A stretch of 64,000 nucleotides of DNA from Escherichia phage Gostya9, in sequence record NC_047979.1. The stretch is one strand, 5' to 3'. The position numbers were made by a program, and so were the translations under genes. The notes below the pieces were generated by a model. The model ran no database searches and was not told the origin of the DNA. It saw only the letters and a program-made list of their open reading frames with translations. Positions 4,214-30,186 of this stretch are shown here, piece after piece (position 1 is the first letter of the stretch; every line of letters begins with the position of its first letter).

Positions 4214-6544
4214 TTAGATAGTACAACCACCAGAAGCACAGCCCGCTGCTTCTTCACCAGCCCCACCACCATTTGCAGTGTTGAAGTTAGCATAATACCA
4301 AGTCTTCCAACCATATTTAACAGCAGTCATGAAATCACGAACTACTACTGGGCCAGGAATAATTTCATTCTCAAACTTGGTGTAGTCATAGTACATATTC
4401 GTACTGATAGACTGACTGAAGAATTTCTGCATAGTTGCTACCCATTTGATCCATTCAATACGATCCACATCATAAGCCAGTTTATAGCTCATGAGAGTAT
4501 CCCAATCAGTTGCACCTGGAGCGATTGCAATTACTTTATTCACTGCACTACCCTTGATAGATACAATCTTACGAGGTGGTTCAATAGAGTTAGTAACCCC
4601 CAACAGAACGGAAGAACTTTCTCCAGGCATCTGCGCAGTCAGAACAGAGTTACGCATACCGTATTTCAGAATATCTGCACGCAGAGATTCCCAATCCATT
4701 TCTAGACCTACGGATACCAGCTCATCAACAGTTTTCTTATACGTGTCGATTACCAGTGTTCCTTTAGATGGTTTAGTACGATTAAACCATTCACACGCAC
4801 CTTGCTCTTTGGCTAGACGTACAGAGGCTTTATGCAGGAAGTAAGACAGTTTTTCAGCTTCACGATGAATCCAGTTACGTGCTTCAACGCCTTCATAAGC
4901 CAAACCTTCCGCCGCCATTGCACCTGCTGCGTTCATCAGACCAATACCAACGTTACGACGTTTCTTAGCTGTATATTCCATAGTTGGGAACGGGTAATCC
5001 TGAATTTCAATGATGGTATCAACGAATTTCAGAAGAATATAGCAAGTTTTTTCCCACTCAGCCAGAGATTCCATGCGTCCAAGTACAACACCACCTAAGT
5101 TACACAGAGATACTTCCCCAATATCCTCCGGCTTCATTTGATCAAGTTGTTCTTTTGTTTTATACAGCTCTGTAATGTGGTGGAATGGGCGTGTAGGCTG
5201 AGTAATTTCAAGGCATAAGTTACTCATACGGATCGGATCAAGGAAGTTACCGTGACGATTAGATTCCCCGATGTGGTGCGCATACATACGTCCTGTTTCC
5301 ATTCGGATACGTAGCCAAGTATCTAGGATTTCTTTTGCAGAGACTTTAGGAGCTGCTGGAACTGTTTTTCCTTCGTGGTCGATCTTTGTAAGAGATGCCA
5401 CACGTTTCTCCGCTGCCGCATAGATTTCTTCAAATTTAGCCTCGTCATCACTATAAAACGCTTCATGAACTTCTGGAGCATAGAAGTATGACATTAGCGT
5501 AATATCTTCATTTTTCAGATAACGTTTTAACAAAAGATTATTAAAGTTCAGAGAATAATCCATCTTATCGATTTTATTCTCGTCTGTAGCACGTTGTTGC
5601 TTAACCTGCATCAACTGAATGATTTCAGGGTCAAAGTAAGGATAGGATACAGTAGCAGAACCACCACGAGTTTGCTGAGTATTAGCCTTTACTGATCGGT
5701 CAATGTGTCGATAATATGGCAGTTTTCCGGAATGCGGGAATGCCCCGTTTCGCACCGGATCAGCAATTGATCGGCTTTCAAGATGATACCCGATTCCCGC
5801 TCTGGCTGCAACCATTTTGAAGACGATGTGTTCGGCTGTGTCGATTGAATCCAATGTGTCAGTGGAATCAACGAGGCAACAACTAGCAAATCCACGGTCA
5901 CTAGAGCGCAAGCCAACCAATGGCGGCGTAGGAACGTTGATCTTGTGGAGTGACATTGCATTGTAGAGATCGATTGCATCTAGAATTGTCCAGTTAGGTT
6001 GAGATAGCATCGCCATTGCCATGCCCATATAGGCAAACTGCGGGGTTTCGTAAATTTCGCCAGTTGCGATATTACGACGGGAATACTTATCAAAGAATTG
6101 TTTCAGTCCTCCACTAGTGAAAAGACGGTCGCGATCATGGTCGATAACCTGATTCAGAGCCTCAAACTGCTCATCGGTAATCCATGCACTCATGTCTTCC
6201 CATGCACCTACACTAACCATATGATCGTGGAAGAAGCGTAGAGAAGGCGGTTCGAAGGAATCATAAAGGCGTTTACGCATCTGCGCAAGACGTAATTCCT
6301 TTGCTGGCACGTCGTATGCTGGGTTATCTTTGATAAGACTTTCAGCAGCTTTAATTAACGCATCCATCAGAGTATCGGAATCTACAACCCCTTTAGGTAG
6401 AGTTTTTTGAGCAGCCATAGTAATGGCTGACCAACTTACATCAACTGTTTTGCAACCATACTCTGCCCAACCATTGAGTTTTTCAGGAGCAAAGTCTTCT
6501 ACAGTACCGTCACGTTTAATTACTTTTTCAATGCGATGGCTCAT
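4214..6544 (-). CDS. nrdA: Ribonucleotide reductase class Ia alpha subunit
   Basis: ATP-cone N-terminus (MSHRIEKVIKRDGTVEDF), large catalytic body, C-terminal Cys pair (CASGGCTI). Start moved to the ATG at 6544, which has an aaggaaaa RBS; the track ORF extends to 6649. Confidence 0.9.
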   Translation of the reverse strand: MSHRIEKVIKRDGTVEDFAPEKLNGWAEYGCKTVDVSWSAITMAAQKTLPKGVVDSDTLMDALIKAAESLIKDNPAYDVPAKELRLAQMRKRLYDSFEPPSLRFFHDHMVSVGAWEDMSAWITDEQFEALNQVIDHDRDRLFTSGGLKQFFDKYSRRNIATGEIYETPQFAYMGMAMAMLSQPNWTILDAIDLYNAMSLHKINVPTPPLVGLRSSDRGFASCCLVDSTDTLDSIDTAEHIVFKMVAARAGIGYHLESRSIADPVRNGAFPHSGKLPYYRHIDRSVKANTQQTRGGSATVSYPYFDPEIIQLMQVKQQRATDENKIDKMDYSLNFNNLLLKRYLKNEDITLMSYFYAPEVHEAFYSDDEAKFEEIYAAAEKRVASLTKIDHEGKTVPAAPKVSAKEILDTWLRIRMETGRMYAHHIGESNRHGNFLDPIRMSNLCLEITQPTRPFHHITELYKTKEQLDQMKPEDIGEVSLCNLGGVVLGRMESLAEWEKTCYILLKFVDTIIEIQDYPFPTMEYTAKKRRNVGIGLMNAAGAMAAEGLAYEGVEARNWIHREAEKLSYFLHKASVRLAKEQGACEWFNRTKPSKGTLVIDTYKKTVDELVSVGLEMDWESLRADILKYGMRNSVLTAQMPGESSSVLLGVTNSIEPPRKIVSIKGSAVNKVIAIAPGATDWDTLMSYKLAYDVDRIEWIKWVATMQKFFSQSISTNMYYDYTKFENEIIPGPVVVRDFMTAVKYGWKTWYYANFNTANGGGAGEEAAGCASGGCTI

Positions 6545-6887: not shown

Positions 6888-7649
6888 CTACACCTTCCCC
6901 ATGTCTTTAAAAATATCGTAGAATGCTTTAGACTCAGCAGAACGAACGTTATCAATCAATTCGATCATTGAGAATGGGGCATTTTCATACTTCTCATAAA
7001 CTTCCATAAGAAGTGCTAGACCTGAGTCACCTTTAATGTCTTTTTGGGCTATATCTCCACAGATAATTAAACGGCAGTCTTGTCCTACACGAGTTAGGAG
7101 ACAAACCATTGCCTCAACGGAAATATTCTGAGCTTCATCGACAATTACATAGGAGTTGTTGAAAGTTCTGCCACGAGCATGTTCTATAGCCAAAAATTTA
7201 ATTTTCTGACGTTCGACATATCCCTTATAGGCGTGATCACCGATGGCCCATTTCATACCATCAGCTATTGGCTCCAACCAAGGCTCTAGCTTTTCTGCTA
7301 GATCACCAGGAAGCATACCAAGAGACTTACCTAGAGGTTCATTAGGACGGACGAGAATCACTTGCTCAATATCTGAGTGAGTGTCTACGAGTTCCTGAGC
7401 TGCAAGAACGGACGGGATAAAGGTTTTACCAGTACCTGGCTCACCGATACCCACAGTCACTGTGTTGTTCTTGATCATATTGATATATGATTTTTGCTCG
7501 CGGTTTTTACCTACTAGGGATTTAGCAACTGGGTTGACGTAATCATTAGAAAAATCAGCCTGAATTACGTTACTCTCATATTTGTTGCCACGCTTTCTTG
7601 AACCATTGCGGTTCTCTCTTTTTTGACGTGCTTTTCCCATAAATAACAC
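6888..7649 (-). CDS. phoH: PhoH-like ATPase
   Basis: Walker A GIGEPGTGKTF and Walker B IVDEAQN; typical PhoH length. Confidence 0.9.
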   Translation of the reverse strand: MLFMGKARQKRENRNGSRKRGNKYESNVIQADFSNDYVNPVAKSLVGKNREQKSYINMIKNNTVTVGIGEPGTGKTFIPSVLAAQELVDTHSDIEQVILVRPNEPLGKSLGMLPGDLAEKLEPWLEPIADGMKWAIGDHAYKGYVERQKIKFLAIEHARGRTFNNSYVIVDEAQNISVEAMVCLLTRVGQDCRLIICGDIAQKDIKGDSGLALLMEVYEKYENAPFSMIELIDNVRSAESKAFYDIFKDMGKV

Positions 7650-7716
7650 TCCTATAGTGTACTTCGCTTCTAACAGAGGATCAACAAAAAGATCTTGTTT
7701 ATCAACTTACAAATAT

Positions 7717-7745
7717 ATTATACCAGTATATATAGTAAAAAGCAA
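7717..7745 (-). promoter_or_regulatory. Early promoter with extended -10 on minus strand, upstream of phoH
   Basis: Reverse complement reads aaaattgtagTTGCTTtttactatatatacTGGTATAAT. Confidence 0.5.
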
Positions 7746-7882
7746 CTACAATTTTAAATAAGCCTATGATATTGCATTTAAATAAAAAATTTGCTTGCTT
7801 ATAAAGGTAGAAATATGATACTAGATAATCATTTATTTATACGCGAAATATTACAGTATTAGATGGCGAAAGAAAAATTTAA

Positions 7883-7911
7883 TTGACATAGTGGGTAATA
7901 TTTAGTATAAT
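7883..7911 (+). promoter_or_regulatory. Consensus sigma70 promoter TTGACA-17-TATAAT upstream of nrdD
   Basis: Exact consensus hexamers with 17-bp spacer, followed by a ~130-nt leader before the nrdD ATG at 8045. Confidence 0.6.
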
Positions 7912-8044
7912 AAGTGTAAAAATTCTGAGGAGAAAACTAACCCACAGTAACTACTGTAAAGAGTAGAACTGTCAGTACAGAAGTTTTAACGGGGTATAGA
8001 GGTCCTCGGTACTGTAGCTACAAAATTTATAGAGGAAATAATTA

Positions 8045-9871
8045 ATGACAGAGAATGAATTAATTGAGAATTGCAAAGGTCTGCTCACTCTAACTGCGGA
8101 TAAAGACTTACAACATAATAATGCTAATAAGCCTAGTGAGATGTTCCATACTCAAAGAGACTTATTGGCCGGAGAAATCAACAAGTATTTAGTATCGCAG
8201 GAATTACCCAAACATCTATTAGACGCCCATAATCTAGGTAAGATACACATTCATGATATGGATTACAGAGCGCAGGGGTACACTAACTGTTGCTTAGTAG
8301 ACCTTGGTGGCATGCTGAAGAATGGTACTAAAATTGGTAATGCAAATATTGAAACTCCTAAATCCATAACTACTGCATGTGCAATCACTGCCCAGATTAT
8401 TGCACAAGTATCTGGTGCTCAGTATGGTGGCACCTCTATTGATCGTATCGACGAGGTTCTAGCCCCGTATGTCAGAAAGTCTTACAATAAACATCTGGGT
8501 CGTGGTCTACGTTGGCTCAAGGATGAAAGAAAAGCTGCCGTGTACGCTACTGAGCTTACTGAAAAAGAGTGTTATGATGCATTCCAAGCTCTAGAGTATG
8601 AAACTAATTCATTATTTAACTCTAACGGGCAGACTCCTTTTGTTACGCTTGGCTTTGGGCTAGGACAGGGGTGGGAGGAAAGGATGATTCAGAAAGCCAT
8701 CCTCCAAAATCGTATTAAAGGTTTAGGTGCTGCTGAGTCAACCCCTATCTTCCCTAAACTAGTATTCTCAGTTAAAGAAGGATTAAATAAAAATCCAGGG
8801 GATCCTAACTACGATATAAAACAGCTAGCACTTGAGTGTTCTGCTACTCGTATGTATCCAGACTATTTAAGTTACGAGAAAGTTGTAGCTGTTACTGGTG
8901 ATTTTAAAGCCCCTATGGGTTGTCGTAGTTTTTTATCTGCTATCCCCTCTGGAGAAATTGCAGGGCGTAATAATTTAGGTGTAGTGTCTATCAATCTACC
9001 TATGGTTGCTGCTGAGGCAGATGGAGTTTTTGAAGATTTCTGGGATATTCTAGACAAATATGTGGATGAGGCTTTTGAAGCGCATGACTTCTTCTTAAAC
9101 AGACTGAAGAAAGTTAAGGCTAAACAAGCCCCTATTCTTTATATGCACGGCGGTTTTGGTGTACGTTTAGATGGGGAAGAATATGTATGGCCTATTTTTG
9201 AAGGTAGATCTTCTGTATCTCTTGGGTACATTGGGGTCTATGAGATGTGTCAAATAATGTTTAGTTTACCACAGACTCATAGGGACTGTATTGAGTTTAC
9301 AGAGGAAGTTCTCACTCACCTAAAAAATCGTTGCGAAGTTAAAGCTAACGAGACTAATCTTGGGTTTAGCTTGTATGCAACTCCTAGTGAGTCTCTATGT
9401 AATCGCTTTAATAAACTACTGGAACGTAGATTCCCAGAGTATTCTTGGCTAACAGATAAAGGCTATCTCACTAATAGTCACCATTTGGACGTAAGAGAGA
9501 AGGTAGCTCCGGATACTAAATTTGAGTATGAAGCTCATTTCACCAAAATAGCTAATGGTGGTAATATATCGTTTGTGGAACTACCACAAATGAAAAAGTT
9601 CCATAAAGCTCTTGAATACGTAGTAGATAAGGGATTAGAATGTAGCCATTATATTGGTGTTAATATACCAATTGATGAGTGCTTCAACTGTGGGTATATG
9701 GGTGAATCTGTTGCCTCTGAACGTGGGTTTGTATGTCCGAGTTGTGGATCTGAAGAAATAGAGGTTACACGTAGGGTTTGTGGGTACCTGGGATCCCCGG
9801 GCAGTAGGCCTTTCAATTCTGGGAAACAAAAAGAAGTGCTTGGTAGAGTAAAACACTTAAATCTTAAGTAA
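8045..9871 (+). CDS. nrdD: Anaerobic ribonucleoside-triphosphate reductase
   Basis: C-terminal Zn ribbon (CFNCG...CPSCG) followed by the glycyl-radical motif RVCGYLG. Confidence 0.9.
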   Translation: MTENELIENCKGLLTLTADKDLQHNNANKPSEMFHTQRDLLAGEINKYLVSQELPKHLLDAHNLGKIHIHDMDYRAQGYTNCCLVDLGGMLKNGTKIGNANIETPKSITTACAITAQIIAQVSGAQYGGTSIDRIDEVLAPYVRKSYNKHLGRGLRWLKDERKAAVYATELTEKECYDAFQALEYETNSLFNSNGQTPFVTLGFGLGQGWEERMIQKAILQNRIKGLGAAESTPIFPKLVFSVKEGLNKNPGDPNYDIKQLALECSATRMYPDYLSYEKVVAVTGDFKAPMGCRSFLSAIPSGEIAGRNNLGVVSINLPMVAAEADGVFEDFWDILDKYVDEAFEAHDFFLNRLKKVKAKQAPILYMHGGFGVRLDGEEYVWPIFEGRSSVSLGYIGVYEMCQIMFSLPQTHRDCIEFTEEVLTHLKNRCEVKANETNLGFSLYATPSESLCNRFNKLLERRFPEYSWLTDKGYLTNSHHLDVREKVAPDTKFEYEAHFTKIANGGNISFVELPQMKKFHKALEYVVDKGLECSHYIGVNIPIDECFNCGYMGESVASERGFVCPSCGSEEIEVTRRVCGYLGSPGSRPFNSGKQKEVLGRVKHLNLK

Positions 9872-21685: not shown

Positions 21686-21717
21686 AAGGGGTGGGGGCTA
21701 TGCCTCTACCCCTTTTT
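21686..21717 (+). terminator. Rho-independent terminator
   Basis: aaggggtgg / ctacccctt stem followed by ttttt. Confidence 0.55.
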
Positions 21718-21750
21718 GCATTTAGAAGGCACGAAAGCGTGCAAAGGAGA

Positions 21751-23223
21751 ATGACCTTGTTTAACGTGCAAGCTGTAGTGTTGAAGATGCTTCTAGCTTC
21801 CGAACAGAAGCAAATAGCATTGGAAACATTCTCAAAACTGCATAAAGATCATTTTAATGACGCTTTCTCCTCAATTTACCAAGCCGTCCAGAATTATTAT
21901 AAAAAATATAACACAATGCCGTCCATTGACGCACTGATGCTTGAGGCTAATAGGAACGCCCGCCTTTCTCAAGCTCTAGTCGTTTTAGCTAACACTCAAA
22001 TTCCAGAAGTTAGCATGGAACAGGCACTTGAAGTCCTAGAGGCCGAGTATACACAGGATTTATTCCTGAAGCTTCTAGAAACAGACGTGCTTCAAGATTT
22101 AACAATGCTGGATCAGGGAGAAATTCTTAACCGAGTTGCCTCCCTTCACTTAAAATTAGAAGAGAAAGTAACGAATACTGGAAAAGTATTCAACGCAGAT
22201 AACATGCGTATTTTCCAGAGAGAAGAAGATACCAAACTGAACTTAATCGCTCTTGGTATTTGTAATGAGTTCGACGCTCAAATTGGTTTAGCTCGCACAG
22301 AAACGTTACTGCTTGGTGGTTGGCGTGGTACTGGTAAATCCATTATCTGTTCAAACATACAGGTTCAGCAATATTTGAATGGAGATATTGCTCCATACTT
22401 CTCAATTGAGATGAAAGAACATGAAGTATTTAGACGTAATCTAGCTATGTTAGCTGGTGTATCAGCACTAGCAATGCGTAATAATACTCTAGAAGGTGCA
22501 GCTCTGTTGAGATTAGCCAGAACTAGAGCTAGGATGTTTAACGGTGGTGAAGAGCTTTTCGATAACTTCGTTAAACAGTACACAATGGCTAAGATGAGTG
22601 ATTTCTACGATATGGAAAGTAAGCTAATAGAAGGATATGAGCTACATACTCCTATGATTATTGTTTATGATCCTGAGCTGTCTATTACAACAGTTGACGT
22701 AGAATTAAATAAATTAGTTGCTAGATATGGGGATAAAGTTACAGTAGCTTTACTAGACTATATTAACCAAACCCGACTTCCAGACTCTAAAACCATTGAT
22801 ATGTATGACTGGAAAGAACAGATGGTTGTTAGCTCGTCTTTCAAATCTATCTGCCAGAAACATAACGTGGCTGGTGTAGCTCCTTACCAGATCGATCAAG
22901 ATGGTAGAACACGTATGTCGAAGGGGATTCTTGATTCCGCAGACATGGCTGCTAATCTTAATGCTGCAAAAGCTGATAATGGTCAAGGTGCTATTATGTT
23001 TGACTTCGTTAAGACTCGGTCTTCTGATAGCGTGAAGTTTATGCCTAAAATGAACTGGGAAACCCTGCGGATGGATAACACTACCAACCTAGCAATGGAA
23101 GATATATCTCAAATGGAAGCTGAGTTCGTTATCCCTATTGAGAAGGATAAGCCGACTCAATCTAAACGTGCTAAGAAAGACAAAGCTGAAAATTCAACAG
23201 GTGAACAGGCCAGCGATATATGA
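21751..23223 (+). CDS. DnaB-like replicative helicase
   Basis: RecA-like core with Walker A GGWRGTGKS. Start moved to ATG 21751 (aaaggaga RBS) because the track start lies inside the upstream terminator; start uncertain. Confidence 0.6.
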   Translation: MTLFNVQAVVLKMLLASEQKQIALETFSKLHKDHFNDAFSSIYQAVQNYYKKYNTMPSIDALMLEANRNARLSQALVVLANTQIPEVSMEQALEVLEAEYTQDLFLKLLETDVLQDLTMLDQGEILNRVASLHLKLEEKVTNTGKVFNADNMRIFQREEDTKLNLIALGICNEFDAQIGLARTETLLLGGWRGTGKSIICSNIQVQQYLNGDIAPYFSIEMKEHEVFRRNLAMLAGVSALAMRNNTLEGAALLRLARTRARMFNGGEELFDNFVKQYTMAKMSDFYDMESKLIEGYELHTPMIIVYDPELSITTVDVELNKLVARYGDKVTVALLDYINQTRLPDSKTIDMYDWKEQMVVSSSFKSICQKHNVAGVAPYQIDQDGRTRMSKGILDSADMAANLNAAKADNGQGAIMFDFVKTRSSDSVKFMPKMNWETLRMDNTTNLAMEDISQMEAEFVIPIEKDKPTQSKRAKKDKAENSTGEQASDI

Positions 23224-23753
23224 TAACACAGGAAAGGCTAAAAGAGTTATTTGATTACTCCCCAGTTTCTGGGGAGTTTACTAGAAAAGTATCTAGAGGT
23301 AATCAGAAAGCTGGTAGTATAATAACCAGAAAAGACTCTAACGGTTATATAATTATTGGTATAGATGGCAAGGATTACAAAGCCCATCGGATGGCTTTTC
23401 TATTTATGGAAAATACATTGCCGGAAAAAGTAGACCATGTAAACAGAATACCTTTTGATAATAGGTGGTGTAATCTAAGAGACGCCACAGCTCAGGAAAA
23501 TAGTAGAAATAAAACCGCATGTAGTAAGTCTGGATATTTGGGAGTTGCTTGGGATATCGAAAAACAAAGATGGAGAGTTCAAGTAAGAGACTCTAATAGC
23601 ACTCTTAAAAATGGTGGCAGATTTAAGTATGAAGAGCTAGAGCTAGCTGTAAATTCAGCAAATATATTAAGGACTAAGTTACATGGAGAACGTGCTGTTA
23701 TAGAAATTTTTGATACATCTAATTATCCTTCACTGGAGGAGTTAAATTCATGA
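23220..23753 (+). CDS. HNH homing endonuclease with AP2-like DNA-binding domain
   Basis: HNH core VDHVNRIPFDNRWCNLR...ENSRN and AP2-like YLGVAWDIEKQRWRVQV; ATGA start/stop overlap with the helicase. Confidence 0.7.
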   Translation: MITQERLKELFDYSPVSGEFTRKVSRGNQKAGSIITRKDSNGYIIIGIDGKDYKAHRMAFLFMENTLPEKVDHVNRIPFDNRWCNLRDATAQENSRNKTACSKSGYLGVAWDIEKQRWRVQVRDSNSTLKNGGRFKYEELELAVNSANILRTKLHGERAVIEIFDTSNYPSLEELNS

Positions 23754-24640
23754 GTCGAATAACAGAATTACTTGATCTTAAGGGAATTGAGTATAAAGAT
23801 ACTGGTGGAGATATTTTAATCTGTTGTCTAAATCCAGATCATGATGATAAACACCCAAGTTTGCGTATTGACCCTGAAACAGGTATTATGCACTGCTTGA
23901 GTTGTGGCTTCGGTAAAGGTATACCGAGCATTTACCATTATTTTAATGAGACTCAGTACCGACAGTCCCCAAGACTATCCCAAGTACGTAAAAAGATTTC
24001 AGAGATTAGAAATGGATCTACAAATCTTGCAATCCCAGAATCTGCTTTTCTTTTTGAAGGTGATTTCCGAGGTATCAGTTCTAAGACCTTAAAGAAATAT
24101 TTTGCTTTCCAACACCAAGAGGACTGGGAGGGCAGAATTGTATTCCCAATCACAGATGCTGTTGGACGCAATATCCTATTTTTGGGTCGTTCTATAAACA
24201 GTTCTGCCCCTCCTAAATACTTAGTAAAACCAAAACAAGTTTCACCACCAATTTTCCCTGTACGATATAATACTCCAGTTCTTATTCTAGTTGAAGGCAT
24301 CTTTGATATGCTGAAGCTAGAGGATAATGGTATAGACTATGCTTCCTGCTGTTTTGGTACACATCAGTTTACTTCCGATAACATTGCAGATAAGTTCAGT
24401 CCTTATATTATTGCCGGTGTAAAAGTTGTTGTTATCTTACTAGATAATGATGCTTCTGGTAATAAAGCTGCCCAGTCTCTAGCGAAGTTAATTCGTACAA
24501 AAACGCGTTTAACACCTGTAGTTGCTAACTTTCTTCTGCCTGAAGGTAAAGACCCTGGTGACTTAAATAAAGAAGAAGTCGATACGTTAGCAAAACGTAT
24601 TGAAATTTTAGTTGCTGAATCGCTTAAAGATTTGGTATAA
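23750..24640 (+). CDS. DNA primase (DnaG-like, Zn finger plus Toprim)
   Basis: CHC2 zinc finger CLNPDHDDKHPSLRIDPETGIMHCLSCG; Toprim acidic motifs (VEGIFDML, LLDNDASG). Confidence 0.8.
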   Translation: MSRITELLDLKGIEYKDTGGDILICCLNPDHDDKHPSLRIDPETGIMHCLSCGFGKGIPSIYHYFNETQYRQSPRLSQVRKKISEIRNGSTNLAIPESAFLFEGDFRGISSKTLKKYFAFQHQEDWEGRIVFPITDAVGRNILFLGRSINSSAPPKYLVKPKQVSPPIFPVRYNTPVLILVEGIFDMLKLEDNGIDYASCCFGTHQFTSDNIADKFSPYIIAGVKVVVILLDNDASGNKAAQSLAKLIRTKTRLTPVVANFLLPEGKDPGDLNKEEVDTLAKRIEILVAESLKDLV

Positions 24641-24641
24641 T
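24612..24641 (+). promoter_or_regulatory. Early promoter TTGCTG-18-TATAAT inside the 3' end of the primase gene
   Basis: aaattttagTTGCTGaatcgcttaaagatttggTATAATatattgg. Confidence 0.45.
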
Positions 24642-24702
24642 ATATTGGTAAGTTAGAGAAGAAACACTGAAGTTATACTTACTTACCAAGAGGAGATTAA
24701 AT

Positions 24703-27700
24703 TTGAAAATTGCAGTAGTTGATAAAGCTCTAAACAACACTCGTTATGATAAACATTTCCAGCTATACGGCGAGGAAGTTGATGTATTCCATATGTGTAA
24801 CGAGAAGTTATCCGGTCGTTTGCTCAAAAAGCATATTACTATCGGGACCCCGGAAAACCCATTTGACCCGAATGATTATGATTTTGTTATACTGGTAGGT
24901 GCCGAACCTTTCCTGTACTTTGCGGGTAAGAAAGGTATTGGTGATTATACTGGTAAACGTGTAGAGTATAATGGATATGCTAACTGGATTGCTAGTATCA
25001 GCCCAGCCCAGTTACACTTTAAACCTGAAATGAAACCAGTTTTTGATGCAACAGTAGAGAGTATCCACGATATTATCAATGGTCGTGAGAAGATTGCAAA
25101 AGCTGGTGATTACCGTCCTATTACTGACCCTGATGAGGCAGAAGAATATATCAAGATGGTGTATAATATGGTTATCGGACCTGTCGCATTCGACTCCGAA
25201 ACCTCAGCACTATACTGTCGAGATGGTTATCTGCTTGGTGTTTCTATTTCTCACCAAGAGTATCAGGGTGTATATATCGATTCTGATTGTCTCACAGAGG
25301 TTGCAGTATATTATCTCCAGAAAATTCTGGATAGTGAAAACCACATTATTGTTTTTCACAACTTGAAGTTTGATATGCACTTTTATAAGTACCATCTGGG
25401 ACTTACTTTTGATAAAGCACATAAAGAACGCAGGCTCCATGATACCATGTTGCAGCACTATGTTCTAGATGAACGTCGTGGTACTCATGGCTTGAAATCT
25501 CTAGCAATGAAGTATACCGATATGGGTGACTATGACTTCGAACTAGATAAGTTCAAAGATGATTACTGCAAAGCACATAAAATCAAGAAAGAAGATTTCA
25601 CCTATGATCTGATTCCGTTTGATATTATGTGGCCATATGCATGTCTTACTCACGATTCCCAAGTTCGGATGGCTTCAGGGAATTGGAAGACTATTGGGGA
25701 ACTTGTTCGCACCAAATCTACAGAAGCTGTAGTATCATTCAACGAGTCAACTGGGCAATTTGAGAACAAACCGATTACTGGATGGTATAAAAATGAACAT
25801 AAATCCAAGCAATGGAAGAAGTTAATAGTTAAATCTCAGCAAAGAAACTCTAAGGGTACTATTAATGGGCCAGTATTTACACCAGATCATAGGGTATTAA
25901 CTCAGAATGGATACATAGAAGTCCAAGATATTATTCCAGGACAGGATAAAATCCTAACTGAAGAACTTGCTTTACCATCTGATAGTAAGCAAGTATTAAT
26001 GGCATCCCTATTTGGGGATGGTGCTCTGGTATCTAGAAATAATTGGGGCGCGGGTCTACAACTGACACAGTCAGAAGCGCATAAAGAGTATCTAGATTTT
26101 AAGGCAGCCTCTCAAGTAGAAACACCAACTCTTAGTTCCTCTACAAAAGGAGATAAAAAAGCATATACGTATAGTTTCCCCTATACCTCGGAGTATTCTG
26201 ACTTATTCTCTACCTTAGAGGTACGAGATAATACTACAAAATATAAGTTAAAAATTACTAAGAAAAATCTAGAAGGGTTAGATGAAAAAGCACTAGCTAT
26301 TTGGTATCAAGATGATGGTAACCTGCCACAAGGAAACGCACGCATTTGGTCTAGAACAGTTGCTGATTGTAAAGAAGAGCAGCAAAATTTCATAGAATGG
26401 TGTAAAAATCTAGGCATTACAGCACGCTACCATAACGATGGAGAAAATAACCAGTTCTTTGTATTAGATAATGAAGAACTATTCCCTTTGATTGCTCCAT
26501 ATATGCATAGCTCTATGGCTTACAAGGTGCCAGAAAGATTCAAGCACTTAGTAGGAACAGGAACTTGGGATTTTTCAACATCTAAGTACTACTATGCAGA
26601 AGTGTATGGGGTTGAGGATTGGGTAGTTCCAGCCTCTAGAAGAGGTTACTCTACCAGTTGGTGTATAGATGTAAAAGATAACCATAACTTTGTAACTAAA
26701 GTTGGTGTAGTTCACAACTGTAAAGATACAGATGCTACCATACGTTTGCACAACTTCTTCTTACCAAAAATTGAGAAGAATGAAAAACTTTGCAGTCTAT
26801 ATTACGATGTTCTAATGCCTGGTTGTGTATTCCTACAGCGTGTCGAAGATCGTGGTGTACCTATCTCTATTGATCGTTTGAAAGAAGCTCAGTATCAATT
26901 GACTCATAATTTGAATAAAGCCCGTGAGAAACTGTATACTTATCCAGAAGTTAAACAGCTAGAACAAGATCAGAATGAAGCATTTAACCCGAACTCTGTT
27001 AAGCAGCTGCGTGTTCTTCTGTTCGATTATGTTGGTTTGACTCCAACTGGTAAGTTAACGGATACTGGTGCAGATTCTACGGATGCAGAAGCTCTGAATG
27101 AACTGGCTACGCAGCATCCAATTGCTAAAACTCTACTAGAGATTCGTAAGCTGACTAAGCTGATCTCTACTTATGTTGAGAAGATTCTTCTGAGTATTGA
27201 TGCAGATGGTTGCATTCGTACTGGTTTCCATGAACATATGACTACTTCTGGTCGTCTGAGTTCTTCTGGTAAACTGAACCTGCAACAGCTACCTCGTGAT
27301 GAATCTATCATTAAGGGTTGTGTAGTTGCACCACCTGGATACCGTGTAATCGCATGGGACTTAACAACTGCGGAAGTTTATTATGCTGCTGTTCTATCTG
27401 GTGATAGAAATATGCAACAAGTATTTATCAACATGAGAAATGAACCCGATAAATACCCTGACTTCCACTCTAACATCGCCCACATGGTATTTAAATTGCA
27501 ATGTGAACCTCGTGATGTTAAAAAGTTATTCCCAGCTCTGCGTCAAGCAGCTAAGGCAATTACCTTTGGTATTTTGTACGGTTCTGGCCCGGCTAAAGTA
27601 GCACATTCTGTTAACGAAGCATTGCTAGAACAAGCAGCCAAAACTGGGGAACCATTTGTTGAATGTACTGTTGCAGATGCTAAAGAGTACATTGAGACTT

Positions 27701-28347
27701 ACTTTGGTCAATTCCCACAGCTTAAGCGTTGGATTGATAAGTGCCACGATCAAATCAAGAATCATGGGTTTATCTATAGTCACTTTGGTCGTAAACGTCG
27801 TCTACATAATATCCACTCTGAAGACCGTGGCGTTCAGGGTGAAGAAATTCGTTCTGGGTTTAACGCAATCATTCAGTCTGCTTCTTCTGATAGTCTCCTT
27901 TTAGGTGCTGTAGATGCAGATAATGAGATCATTTCTCTTGGCCTAGAACAAGAGATGAAGATTGTTATGCTGGTTCATGACTCCGTAGTTGCTATTGTTC
28001 GTGAAGACTTGATTGATCAATACAATGAAATTCTGATTCGTAATATTCAGAAAGACCGTGGTATCAGTATTCCTGGCTGTCCGATTGGTATTGATTCAGA
28101 TTCTGAAGCTGGAGGTTCTCGTGACTATTCTTGTGGTAAGATGAAGAAACAGCACCCATCAATCGCTTGTATTGATGATGACGAATATACTCGTTACGTT
28201 AAAGAAATGCTTCTTGATTCTGAATTCGAGTATAAGAAATTAGCTGCAATGGATAAAGAGCATCCAGATCATAGCAAATACAAGGATGATAAGTTTATTG
28301 CTGTATGTAAGGATCTGGATAACGTGAAAAGGGTTCTCGGTGCTTAA
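24703..28347 (+). CDS. Family A DNA polymerase with 3'-5' exonuclease domain, interrupted in-frame by an intein
   Basis: Exo I VAFDSETSALY; pol motif B RQAAKAITFGILYGSG; motif C LVHDSVV. 1214 aa in total; 855 aa once the 359-aa intein is removed. TTG start with aagaggaga RBS. Confidence 0.9.
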   Translation: MKIAVVDKALNNTRYDKHFQLYGEEVDVFHMCNEKLSGRLLKKHITIGTPENPFDPNDYDFVILVGAEPFLYFAGKKGIGDYTGKRVEYNGYANWIASISPAQLHFKPEMKPVFDATVESIHDIINGREKIAKAGDYRPITDPDEAEEYIKMVYNMVIGPVAFDSETSALYCRDGYLLGVSISHQEYQGVYIDSDCLTEVAVYYLQKILDSENHIIVFHNLKFDMHFYKYHLGLTFDKAHKERRLHDTMLQHYVLDERRGTHGLKSLAMKYTDMGDYDFELDKFKDDYCKAHKIKKEDFTYDLIPFDIMWPYACLTHDSQVRMASGNWKTIGELVRTKSTEAVVSFNESTGQFENKPITGWYKNEHKSKQWKKLIVKSQQRNSKGTINGPVFTPDHRVLTQNGYIEVQDIIPGQDKILTEELALPSDSKQVLMASLFGDGALVSRNNWGAGLQLTQSEAHKEYLDFKAASQVETPTLSSSTKGDKKAYTYSFPYTSEYSDLFSTLEVRDNTTKYKLKITKKNLEGLDEKALAIWYQDDGNLPQGNARIWSRTVADCKEEQQNFIEWCKNLGITARYHNDGENNQFFVLDNEELFPLIAPYMHSSMAYKVPERFKHLVGTGTWDFSTSKYYYAEVYGVEDWVVPASRRGYSTSWCIDVKDNHNFVTKVGVVHNCKDTDATIRLHNFFLPKIEKNEKLCSLYYDVLMPGCVFLQRVEDRGVPISIDRLKEAQYQLTHNLNKAREKLYTYPEVKQLEQDQNEAFNPNSVKQLRVLLFDYVGLTPTGKLTDTGADSTDAEALNELATQHPIAKTLLEIRKLTKLISTYVEKILLSIDADGCIRTGFHEHMTTSGRLSSSGKLNLQQLPRDESIIKGCVVAPPGYRVIAWDLTTAEVYYAAVLSGDRNMQQVFINMRNEPDKYPDFHSNIAHMVFKLQCEPRDVKKLFPALRQAAKAITFGILYGSGPAKVAHSVNEALLEQAAKTGEPFVECTVADAKEYIETYFGQFPQLKRWIDKCHDQIKNHGFIYSHFGRKRRLHNIHSEDRGVQGEEIRSGFNAIIQSASSDSLLLGAVDADNEIISLGLEQEMKIVMLVHDSVVAIVREDLIDQYNEILIRNIQKDRGISIPGCPIGIDSDSEAGGSRDYSCGKMKKQHPSIACIDDDEYTRYVKEMLLDSEFEYKKLAAMDKEHPDHSKYKDDKFIAVCKDLDNVKRVLGA
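25642..26718 (+). mobile_element. Intein with LAGLIDADG homing endonuclease inside the DNA polymerase
   Basis: Block A CLTHDSQVRMASG begins at Cys; block B FTPDHRVL; two LAGLIDADG motifs (LMASLFGDGAL, LAIWYQDDGNL); blocks F/G VKDNHNFVTKVGVVHN followed by +1 Cys (CKDTDA). Confidence 0.85.
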
Positions 28348-28837
28348 TTTCAAATTGCCCGTCTATGCGTTACGGGCGTTTGTATCAATTGAGCAAGAAG
28401 GTGATTATTCCGTAATTACAACAAGATATAATAAATATGTGCTAGATAACAGGAAGTTGCCTGGCACGTTTTCTCAACGTAGGCTTATTCTATTTGAGAA
28501 ACGGAAAGAATTACCATATAAGCTCTATCCTATTAGAGGTAGAATATCAATGTTGTCTCAATTAGTTGGGTCAAAGCGTAACCAATTTATAGATTCTGAT
28601 GGAAATCTTATTAATTGGAAGAAAACAACGTTCTACGATGTTGTCACCTCTAAAGTTTTGCATTCAGCTAGAATTTACAATGGAAAATACCAATGCTACG
28701 TGGCTAAAGTCCCTTATCCATTTGTATTATCCTATGTTCCAGCTTATATAAGCTATATTCTGGTAAATAATAGCCCTGTTATTTATCAAGTCCATCAAGA
28801 GGAGCCTGAAATTCCTAGACTTAGAATAAAATTATGA
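28340..28837 (+). CDS. Hypothetical protein (about 165 aa), AT-rich
   Basis: GTG start with aaaaggg RBS overlapping the polymerase stop; composition is more AT-rich than the flanking replication genes. Confidence 0.4.
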   Translation: MLNFKLPVYALRAFVSIEQEGDYSVITTRYNKYVLDNRKLPGTFSQRRLILFEKRKELPYKLYPIRGRISMLSQLVGSKRNQFIDSDGNLINWKKTTFYDVVTSKVLHSARIYNGKYQCYVAKVPYPFVLSYVPAYISYILVNNSPVIYQVHQEEPEIPRLRIKL

Positions 28838-30186
28838 AGGTTGTTATATCTAATAAAGCCTATTTCAAGCCCGATGATGAACTTTGGGATTATTGTAGTA
28901 AGCAAACCACTTACCACATAGAGACAATGACTAGTAAATACCCTATTATGTATAAGAATAGTGGTGTTGTTGCCAAAGAGATTAAGTGGATTCCTATTAC
29001 GCGTCTGGATTTACTAGATGCTAAAGGAATAAAATACGAATTAGTTGATAAACGCACGTTAGCTCCGGTAGATATACCAAAACCGTCGTTTAAACTGCGT
29101 GAAGAAGATCAGCTTCCAATATACGAAGAGTGCGATGATACCTGCATTATTAATGGTAAGCCTGGATTTGGTAAAACTATCCTAGCACTTGCACTTGCGT
29201 ATAAATTTGGCCAGAAAACTTTGGTAATCTGTACGAATACATCCATTCGTGAAATGTGGGCGGCGGAAGTTCGTAAATGGTTTGGGTTTGAACCGGGCAT
29301 CATAGGTTCTGGGAAATACAATATCGATCCACCAATTGTAGTCAGTAATATTCAAACAGTGAATAAGCATGCGAATAATCTTTCTAAAGTATTCGGTACT
29401 GTTATAGTTGATGAAGTTCACCATTGTGTAGCTACAACTTTCACTAACTTCCTAGAAATATCATGTGCTCGCTATAAAATTGGACTATCCGGCACACTAA
29501 AACGTAAGGATGGCTTGCAAGTTATGTTCAAAGATTTCTTTGGATATAAAATCTTTAGTCCTCCAGTTAATAATACTGTTGCTCCTACAATCCACAGGTA
29601 CTCCGTACCAGTTGAATTGTCTGGAAACCAAAACGTACCGTGGGCATTACGTGCTAACGATGTGTATAACCATCCTGAATATCGAGGGGCTATTATAAAC
29701 CTAGCACATTTATATGTGAATATGGGGCATAAAGTACTCATTGTAAGTGATAGAACAGAGTTAATCCAAACAGTACTAGAAGCTCTTACGCAGCGGGGTG
29801 TCACAACCTATGAAATTATAGGGGCAACCCACTTAGATGACCGATTAAAAATTCAGGAAGATATAGCAAAAGGTGGGCCTTGTGTACTTGCAGCAGCTCA
29901 AAGTATCTTCTCTGAAGGTATTTCCCTTAATGAGCTATCTTGTTTAATAATGGGAAGCCTCATTAATAATGAATCTCTCATTGAACAGCTTGCAGGCCGT
30001 GTTCAACGTATTGTCGATGGTAAACTCGACCCTATTGTTGTAGATCTAATTATGAAAGGTGGCACTGGACTAAGACAGGCTTCTGGACGTATGGCAGTAT
30101 ACCGTAACAATGGGTGGAAAACTATTACTATGACTCCTGAGAAAGCAGTTCAATTAGCCAAAATTGCATTTGGCAACAGCTCATAA
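28834..30186 (+). CDS. DEAH-box DNA helicase (superfamily 2)
   Basis: Walker A NGKPGFGKTILA; DEAH box VIVDEVHH; helicase C-terminal domain. Confidence 0.8.
   Translation: MKVVISNKAYFKPDDELWDYCSKQTTYHIETMTSKYPIMYKNSGVVAKEIKWIPITRLDLLDAKGIKYELVDKRTLAPVDIPKPSFKLREEDQLPIYEECDDTCIINGKPGFGKTILALALAYKFGQKTLVICTNTSIREMWAAEVRKWFGFEPGIIGSGKYNIDPPIVVSNIQTVNKHANNLSKVFGTVIVDEVHHCVATTFTNFLEISCARYKIGLSGTLKRKDGLQVMFKDFFGYKIFSPPVNNTVAPTIHRYSVPVELSGNQNVPWALRANDVYNHPEYRGAIINLAHLYVNMGHKVLIVSDRTELIQTVLEALTQRGVTTYEIIGATHLDDRLKIQEDIAKGGPCVLAAAQSIFSEGISLNELSCLIMGSLINNESLIEQLAGRVQRIVDGKLDPIVVDLIMKGGTGLRQASGRMAVYRNNGWKTITMTPEKAVQLAKIAFGNSS

Follow-up and report, generated by a model that had tools for sequence, protein, structure and literature searches.

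The closest described relative of the element analysed here is found in phage SelmaRatti (Bas34), whose GenBank record MZ501103.1 annotates a 1077-nucleotide (nt) mat_peptide named 'intein' within an 'intein-containing DNA polymerase precursor', and the annotation passage of the BASEL paper (PMC8594841) reports that inteins were precisely identified by comparative annotation. Inteins in bacterial DNA polymerase I have also been mentioned in a survey, and our literature searches found no paper that describes or tests an intein in a T5-family polymerase. Here we examine a stretch of 64,000 nucleotides from Escherichia phage Gostya9 (NC_047979.1), referred to as the window, in which the gene for a T5-type family A DNA polymerase carries an insertion at 25642-26718, the coordinates equivalent to those of the SelmaRatti annotation. 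At the level of annotation this intein is already known, and the window holds what is best described as another allele of it, about 96% identical. The two copies share the gene, the site and the length of 1077 nt, with identities of 96.1% for nucleotides and 95.3% for amino acids; some 17 residues differ, and the Asp225 kept in the window is Ala in SelmaRatti. Unannotated copies are present in the Salmonella phages Kenya-K44, K36, K42 and smaug.

An in-frame insertion in the proofreading motif

A first question is whether the insertion has exact and reproducible boundaries. The segment 25642-26718 translates without a stop into 359 amino acids (1077 nt; CLTHDSQV...KVGVVHN), and the next codon, TGT, encodes Cys. 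When the polymerase gene was compared by megablast with 50,697 phage records (INPHARED), 447 T5-like genomes were matched, and in 441 of these the match fell into two pieces covering 70% of the query, with exactly the intein segment missing. The other six records, which represent five phages (Kenya-K44, K36, K42, SelmaRatti and smaug), are matched along the whole gene and carry the insert at the same site. An indel that is missing as one exact segment from 441 of 447 records and occupies the same site in six is not a product of chance. Codon-by-codon alignment with the intein-free genes of DT57C, T5, GEC_vB_N5, Sw2 and SuperGirl, all of 855 codons, places the gap exactly at 25642-26718 in all five. 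The preliminary description, which was made from the letters of the sequence, had set the insertion at these positions and had given 855 amino acids as the length of the T5 polymerase; both statements hold, given that the protein without its insert aligns end to end with five 855-residue polymerases, and the spliced window protein differs from that of DT57C at only nine of 855 residues.

The position of the insertion within the enzyme is resolved by comparison with the Klenow fragment, with which the spliced sequence aligns at E=4e-50. In this alignment the T5-type segment '...DIMWPY-A-C-K-D-TDATIRLH' overlies '...EEAGRY-A-A-E-D-ADVTLQLH' of Klenow, such that the Exo III residues Y-A|intein|C-K-D correspond to Y497-A498|A499-E500-D501 (chain positions counted). 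The intein therefore splits Exo III (motif Y-x3-D) between its catalytic Tyr and Asp, inside the active site of the 3'-5' proofreading exonuclease. The preliminary description had spoken of a 1077-nt in-frame insertion flanked by the catalytic motifs of the polymerase, of which the insertion stands but the flanking does not: it is Exo III that is split, and polymerase motifs A, B and C all lie downstream. Because Exo III is split, the exonuclease site of the unspliced precursor should be non-functional, and it is plausible that the precursor lacks polymerase activity too. The five other carriers are all phages that have been isolated and propagated, and as the polymerase is their replicase, we infer that the insert must be excised; polymerase activity is likewise predicted to depend on splicing.

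One alternative hypothesis takes the 359 residues for an accessory domain native to the polymerase, one that is not excised. The uninterrupted reading frame is what such a domain would show, and nothing else speaks for it. The segment is missing from the 441 close relatives, whose 855-residue proteins are otherwise collinear; it divides a catalytic motif and is predicted to have a HINT plus LAGLIDADG fold; and its relatives occur in unrelated host proteins, among them ligase and enzymes that resemble dCMP deaminase or UDG. The alignments rule a native domain out, and we assign it a negligible probability.

Splicing domain, endonuclease and transfer between phages

The hallmarks of an intein that had been read from the sequence beforehand, namely a Cys at the start, TPDH, a VVHN end and a +1 Cys, are all present, on the plus strand like the other features of this gene. 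Block A (CLTHDSQVRMASG, 25642..25680) opens with the nucleophile Cys1 of CLTHDSQV, matches the TIGR01445 model and retains its Cys in 102 of 102 complete relatives. Block B (GPVFTPDHRVLT, 25867..25902) contains the T80-x-x-H83 signature as TPDH at intein residues 80-83, and T80 and H83 are invariant in a 16-sequence alignment (A1). Block F (STSWCIDVKDNHNFV, 26650..26694) has Cys341 at its position F:4 (26662-26664), and block G, VGVVHN (residues 354-359, 26701..26718; TIGR01443), ends in the penultimate His358 and the terminal Asn359, directly before the +1 Cys. The NCBIfam models intein_Nterm (TIGR01445) and intein_Cterm (TIGR01443) score 29.3 bits (cutoff 24.5) and 16.1 bits (cutoff 15.6), respectively. 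An AlphaFold2 model of the intein based on A1 has a predicted local distance difference test score (pLDDT) of 92.4 and a predicted template modelling score (pTM) of 0.88. In Foldseek comparisons with the PDB, the best full-length matches are TliVMA, PI-SceI and PI-PfuI (E 1e-12 to 2e-09), and the best matches of the splicing domain are the Mtu RecA and Ssp DnaB mini-inteins, with a template modelling score (TM) of ~0.6 and a root-mean-square deviation (rmsd) of ~2.8-3.4 Å; the Foldseek probability is 1.00 for the Mtu RecA, Ssp DnaB, PI-SceI and TliVMA inteins. A search of the PDB with the single intein sequence gave no significant match, no competing open reading frame (ORF) of note was found on either strand, and composition is not anomalous, the GC content being 38.1% for the intein compared with 38.9% and 39.9% for the exteins.

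Nested in this splicing domain, at about intein residues 109-317 (25966..26592), is a predicted I-SceI-like LAGLIDADG endonuclease domain that is recognised by Pfam, profile and fold. The two LAGLIDADG motifs of the preliminary description are borne out as LMASLFGDGAL (residues 119-129, 25996..26028), with the catalytic Asp126, and LAIWYQDDGNL (residues 218-228, 26293..26325), with the catalytic Asp225. Each ends in the catalytic acid followed by Gly (LFGD126-G and YQDD225-G), and D126, G127, D225 and G226 are invariant in A1. Pfam LAGLIDADG_2 (PF03161) matches precursor residues 430-578 with 39 bits (cutoff 25), and the domain also matches phrog_11023. A profile search of PDB sequences retrieves I-SceI at E=1e-16, and Foldseek superposes the modelled domain on I-SceI with a TM of 0.66 and an rmsd of 3.7 Å over 211 columns.

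The exact in-frame indel, Cys1 with TxxH, the His-Asn/+1 Cys end, the profile matches and the HINT fold make up a class-1-type signature, and the element is classed on it as a full-length class 1 intein, in which an I-SceI-like homing endonuclease is nested within the HINT splicing domain. From the exact indel, the intein models and the predicted fold together we conclude with great confidence that 25642..26718 encodes a bona fide splicing intein of 359 amino acids with a LAGLIDADG endonuclease domain. Endonucleases of the I-SceI kind are, however, typically intron-encoded, and a group I intron-like sequence occurs in the neighbouring helicase gene of Kenya-K44, so might the insertion instead be a group I intron that carries a LAGLIDADG endonuclease gene and is removed at the RNA level? 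No Rfam match was found in 23000-29500 even at E<=1, the frame is open across both junctions, HINT blocks A, B, F and G flank the endonuclease, and Cys1, Asn359 and Cys+1 stand exactly at the edges of the indel. The missing Rfam match and the continuous ORF lead us to reject an intron, the chance of which is vanishingly small.

If it follows the pathway known from characterised class 1 inteins, the intein would act after translation of the 1214-residue precursor. Cys1 would undergo an N-S acyl shift helped by T80 and H83, the N-extein would be passed to the +1 Cys by transesterification, and cyclisation of Asn359, with His358 assisting, would release an intein of ~41 kDa. A final S-N shift would yield the 855-residue polymerase, in which the motif is restored as Y-A-C-K-D, with Cys in place of the Ala of intein-free alleles; the ligated junction peptide expected after splicing is ...IMWPYACKDTDATIR. 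In a mixed infection, the freed intein, or the precursor, could then cleave the intein-free allele ...TGGCCNTAYGCT|GCAAAAGAT... of another T5-like phage, for which the candidate target across the insertion point of the intein-free DT57C/T5 polymerase gene is ...ATGTGGCCTTACGCT|GCAAAAGATACAGATGC..., and repair from the intein-bearing copy would copy in the 1077 nt together with the Cys codon.

What do the alleles say about the unit that moves? Only four extein positions separate the five intein-bearing from five intein-free alleles. One is the third base of the -1 Ala codon (25641..25641), where the difference is silent, the codon being GCA in 5/5 intein-bearing and GCT in 5/5 intein-free alleles, and the other three form the +1 Cys codon TGT (26719..26721), which is an Ala codon (GCA/GCG) in every intein-free allele examined. 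Because intein-free alleles have Ala at +1, the codon for the Cys that would serve as +1 nucleophile is seen to travel with the intein, and the predicted spliced enzyme reads Y-A-C-K-D where intein-free enzymes read Y-A-A-K-D, an A314C scar. An intein-free allele with the Cys footprint (pattern ATGTGGCCNTAYGCNTGYAARGAYAC) was matched 0 times against 34 matches for the Ala version, and precise loss of the intein is therefore unsupported.

The comparison with smaug crosses genera: smaug is an Epseptimavirus, and the sequence of the window is of Tequintavirus type. The nucleotide identity of the two is 97.0% in the intein and 87.5% and 87.6% in the exteins, and the synonymous substitution rate (dS) is 0.085 in the intein versus 0.83 and 0.70 in the exteins, approximately 10-fold lower in the intein. 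From its fourth nucleotide on, the smaug C-extein is 99.2% identical to that of the intein-free phage Sw2, and the flanks carry Epseptimavirus variants right up to the intein junctions; the window exteins are nearest to those of intein-free DT57C (98.1% and 97.5% nucleotide identity) and not to those of any carrier. The low dS of the intein relative to that of the exteins indicates a recent horizontal transfer across genera with breakpoints at the edges of the intein itself. Moreover, the ratio of nonsynonymous to synonymous rates (dN/dS) is 0.09-0.40 in the intein versus 0.01-0.04 in the exteins, and 0.09-0.36 in the endonuclease domain for pairs with at least one nonsynonymous difference. 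These values imply purifying selection on the intein, its endonuclease domain included, that is weaker than on the exteins but real.

Several observations weigh against a conventional splicing intein that spreads by means of its endonuclease. The Pfam model Intein_splicing (PF14890) covers the insert with only 20-24 bits, below its threshold of 35.8, and our literature searches found no experiment on the window intein or any allelic copy. The Asp that is usual, although not universal, at F:4 of class 1 inteins is replaced by Cys341, and with a Cys rather than an Asp at F:4 the catalytic details may differ from those of the usual class 1 intein. Co-conversion tracts are essentially absent, at most ~10-25 nt, which is shorter than expected just after homing, and which erasure by later recombination could explain. 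The intein is also rare, being present in 6 of 447 INPHARED T5-like records and 0 of 34 IMG/VR T5-like contigs, and no sweep of the population by the endonuclease is therefore under way; the IMG/VR scan gave only two matches to the intein, at ~25% identity, and none of the 34 T5-like contigs carries it.

The codon for intein residue 225 of SelmaRatti (~4612-4614 of the MZ501103.1 locus) specifies Ala, and the window, K44, K36 and smaug have Asp at this residue; the substitution suggests that the SelmaRatti endonuclease is inactivated, as expected late in a homing cycle. An alternative reading of the element analysed here is that it still splices but no longer cuts, that it is kept only because imprecise loss would ruin an essential gene, and that it spreads passively by ordinary recombination between phages. 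A rare and patchy distribution, an undetectable co-conversion tract, the Asp225 to Ala change of SelmaRatti and a dN/dS several-fold above that of the exteins are all compatible with such an element. In the window copy, however, neither catalytic Asp nor any of the family-invariant residues has been lost, the dN/dS of the endonuclease domain is well under 1, and a 97% identical element within 87% identical exteins, with breakpoints at its edges, is the pattern that endonuclease-driven homing yields. For this reason we regard a silent endonuclease as a rather unlikely account that still deserves consideration, and favour, with limited confidence, a window endonuclease that is probably active at present.

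Relatives of the intein and the block F cysteine

Searched exhaustively with HMMER, a set of 1.84 billion representatives yielded 2,034 relatives of the intein at E<=1e-3, and a word-indexed protein search returned a single match, a PhoH intein at 29% identity. The 102 complete relatives retain Cys1 and the terminal Asn without exception (102/102 each), TxxH in 96 cases, and a +1 residue that is Cys in 95 and Ser in seven. In many of them the penultimate His is replaced by Ser or Lys, a variability that is known in phage inteins (PMC5050341). Among metagenomic relatives the best, P0002-P0005 at 44-51% identity, occur in T5-like polymerases at the same site, with junctions YA|C...HN|C-x-D-T, and the next tier (30-35% identity) is found mostly in other family A polymerases, many with an N-terminal UDG fusion. 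In all, 46 of the 102 complete matches occupy the Y-[AGS]|C-x-D site. Intein identity roughly tracks extein identity, with values of 0.51 versus 0.49-0.55, 0.44 versus 0.54-0.56, and 0.33-0.35 versus 0.20-0.35, and this suggests a long association of the intein lineage with the PolA Exo III site. Among cultured phages there are only the five T5-like carriers, and the next tblastn matches, at ~25% identity, are inteins in UvsX-like genes and in genes for RNA ligase.

Other sites are occupied within the clade (P0072, P0078, P0088, P0104, P0117 and others), for which the motifs were read by eye only. By this reading they include a PolA Exo II site, AHN|[C/S]KFD, a dCMP-deaminase-like site, C|C-x-HAE, a UDG-like site, TNxVK|CRPP, and the K-x-D-G motif of a ligase. 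Several proteins, P0037, P0057 and P0067 among them, contain two inteins of the clade.

The assignment of Cys341 to F:4 is based on the HMMER alignment, in which 'sWCIDVkdnHNF' lies on 'hVYDIEVehnHNF' of the Spl DnaX mini-intein. From F:4 to the terminal Asn there are 18 residues, which we take to be the same spacing as that from D422 to N440 of Mtu RecA. Across the 102 relatives F:4 is Cys in 89, each of which has Cys1 and TxxH as well, and Asp in ten, and the Cys is invariant in A1. What might such a residue do? Class 1 inteins usually have Asp at F:4, and Cys at F:4 is the nucleophile of class 3 inteins (PMC2807308). A non-canonical or conditional, for example redox-gated, intein could be envisaged on this basis, in which Cys341 acts as a nucleophile or forms a disulfide with Cys1 or Cys+1 and the maturation of the polymerase is regulated; three cysteines would share the active centre of such an intein. 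The rest of the class 3 signature is nonetheless absent, in that Cys1 is invariant, B:12 is Val, Ile or Leu and never Trp, G:5 is Val, and TxxH is present, and we consider this possibility improbable next to an intein of conventional class 1 type. As to class 3 membership proper, only one of four signature elements, the F:4 Cys341, is found in the window intein, which has Cys1, Val85 at B:12 and Val357 at G:5, and we reject it.

A broader proposal is that these relatives form a large, apparently undescribed and probably mostly phage-borne clade, defined by Cys1, TxxH and an F:4 Cys, about 2,000 members strong and devoid of the Trp and Thr of class 3, which is either intermediate between class 1 and class 3 or gated by thiol/disulfide chemistry. 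We put this forward as a speculation with little likelihood of being right. An origin of class 3 inteins in phages has been proposed. If thiol/disulfide gating were true, the maturation of a T5-type replicase and proofreader would be conditional. Among the features of this locus only the conserved F:4 Cys might alter the understanding of inteins.

Genomic context and comparison with known systems

The preliminary description had given the polymerase ORF as 1214 amino acids, and the reading frame is found at 24703..28347 (+), 1214 codons plus a stop, with a TTG start and a Shine-Dalgarno sequence, AAGAGGAGA, at 24688-24696, 7 nt 5' of the TTG. Pfam places DNA_pol_A_exo1 at precursor residues 137-313 and DNA_pol_A at residues 732-1119. 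The N-extein (24703..25641, 313 amino acids) comprises the N-terminal domain, Exo I (FDSETS, 25189-25206), Exo II (NLKFD, 25360-25374) and, at its end, PYA with the Tyr-Ala of Exo III (25633-25641). The C-extein (26719..28347, 542 amino acids) begins with the C-K-D of Exo III and continues into the polymerase domain, where motif A (DLTTAEV) lies at 27358-27378, motif B (RQAAKAITFGILYG) at 27541-27582 and motif C (VHDS) at 27973-27984. Public records disagree on the start of this gene, which corresponds to the TTG at 24703 or the ATG at 24793 of the window. The TTG with its strong Shine-Dalgarno sequence, giving the 855-residue mature protein, is annotated in DT57C, K44 and smaug, and the ATG, 90 nt downstream, in T5 (AY587007), SelmaRatti, SuperGirl and GEC_vB_N5.

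A 177-residue HNH homing-endonuclease ORF at 23220-23753 (+) (Pfam HNH_3; phrog_99, E=4e-57) sits between two genes that it overlaps by 4 nt each, those for the replicative helicase (21691-23223) and the primase (23750-24640). It is missing in DT57C, SelmaRatti, K44, K36 and smaug, in which the helicase gene abuts the primase gene, and T5 aligns across the region and has only the 225-nt ORF111 annotated there. The window thus contains, within 3 kb of its replication module, two selfish nuclease elements that are independent of each other. Downstream of the polymerase gene, a 165-residue ORF at 28340-28837 (+), the T5 'D10 5' region' protein, overlaps the polymerase stop by 8 nt; it has no Pfam match at E<=0.01, and its position is conserved in all T5-like loci examined. 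The D10-type helicase gene that follows is uninterrupted in the window (28834-30186). In Kenya-K44 (OQ291036.1) an insert of ~1 kb splits the D10-type helicase gene downstream of the polymerase, at 7436-8443 of the locus, and within this insert the Rfam group I intron model matches over its full length, although below threshold (40.8 bits, E=2e-8), and a 238-residue ORF gives a weak TnsA-like endonuclease match.

For annotation, the gene should be entered as an intein-containing polymerase precursor with two mature peptides, and four of the five public carriers are labelled only 'DNA polymerase'. The locus offers a clean natural case of a selfish element that occupies one of the catalytic motifs of a replicase essential to the phage, and one that crosses genera, between Tequintavirus and Epseptimavirus. 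Because of its high processivity and its strand displacement, T5-type polymerase has biotechnological uses, and the intein, which is compact and mesophilic and has an I-SceI-like nuclease, could be of use as a reagent.

How does the intein compare with those already characterised? The large bipartite inteins PI-SceI (Sce VMA1), TliVMA and PI-PfuI share its architecture and, as read from sequence, its Cys1...His-Asn/Cys+1 chemistry. Their identity to it is only 10-14% and their global TM 0.31-0.37, the latter being low because the domain arrangement differs, and the window intein is smaller (359 versus 366-537 residues), has an I-SceI/LAGLIDADG_2 endonuclease and a Cys at F:4. Its endonuclease is homologous to the monomeric double-LAGLIDADG enzymes I-SceI, of a yeast mitochondrial group I intron (PDB 1R7M), and I-WcaI; I-SceI is free-standing and intron-encoded, whereas the window domain is nested in HINT. 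With Mtu RecA (PI-MtuI) and Ssp/Npu DnaB it has the HINT fold in common, with a profile E of ~1e-5 over the N-terminal 117 residues, at ~20% identity and with Asp at F:4 in those inteins in contrast to Cys here. The phage-borne class 3 inteins, represented by the mycobacteriophage Bethlehem DnaB intein (PMC2807308), also have a Cys at F:4, but their N-terminus offers no nucleophile and they carry Trp at B:12 and Thr at G:5, whereas the window intein has Cys1, Val85 and Val357. The metagenomic PolA inteins (P0002-P0005, P0006 and others, many of them in UDG-PolA fusions) share with it the Y-[A/G/S]|C-x-D-x-D site, the I-SceI-like endonuclease, Cys1 and the F:4 Cys; they are 30-51% identical to it, and many end in Ser-Asn or Lys-Asn and not His-Asn. 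The Gostya9 intein belongs, as an ordinary representative, to a kind of element that is already known, and it leaves the current understanding of inteins unchanged; only two aspects of it, the F:4 Cys with its conservation and the large PolA Exo III clade, are perhaps worth more work.

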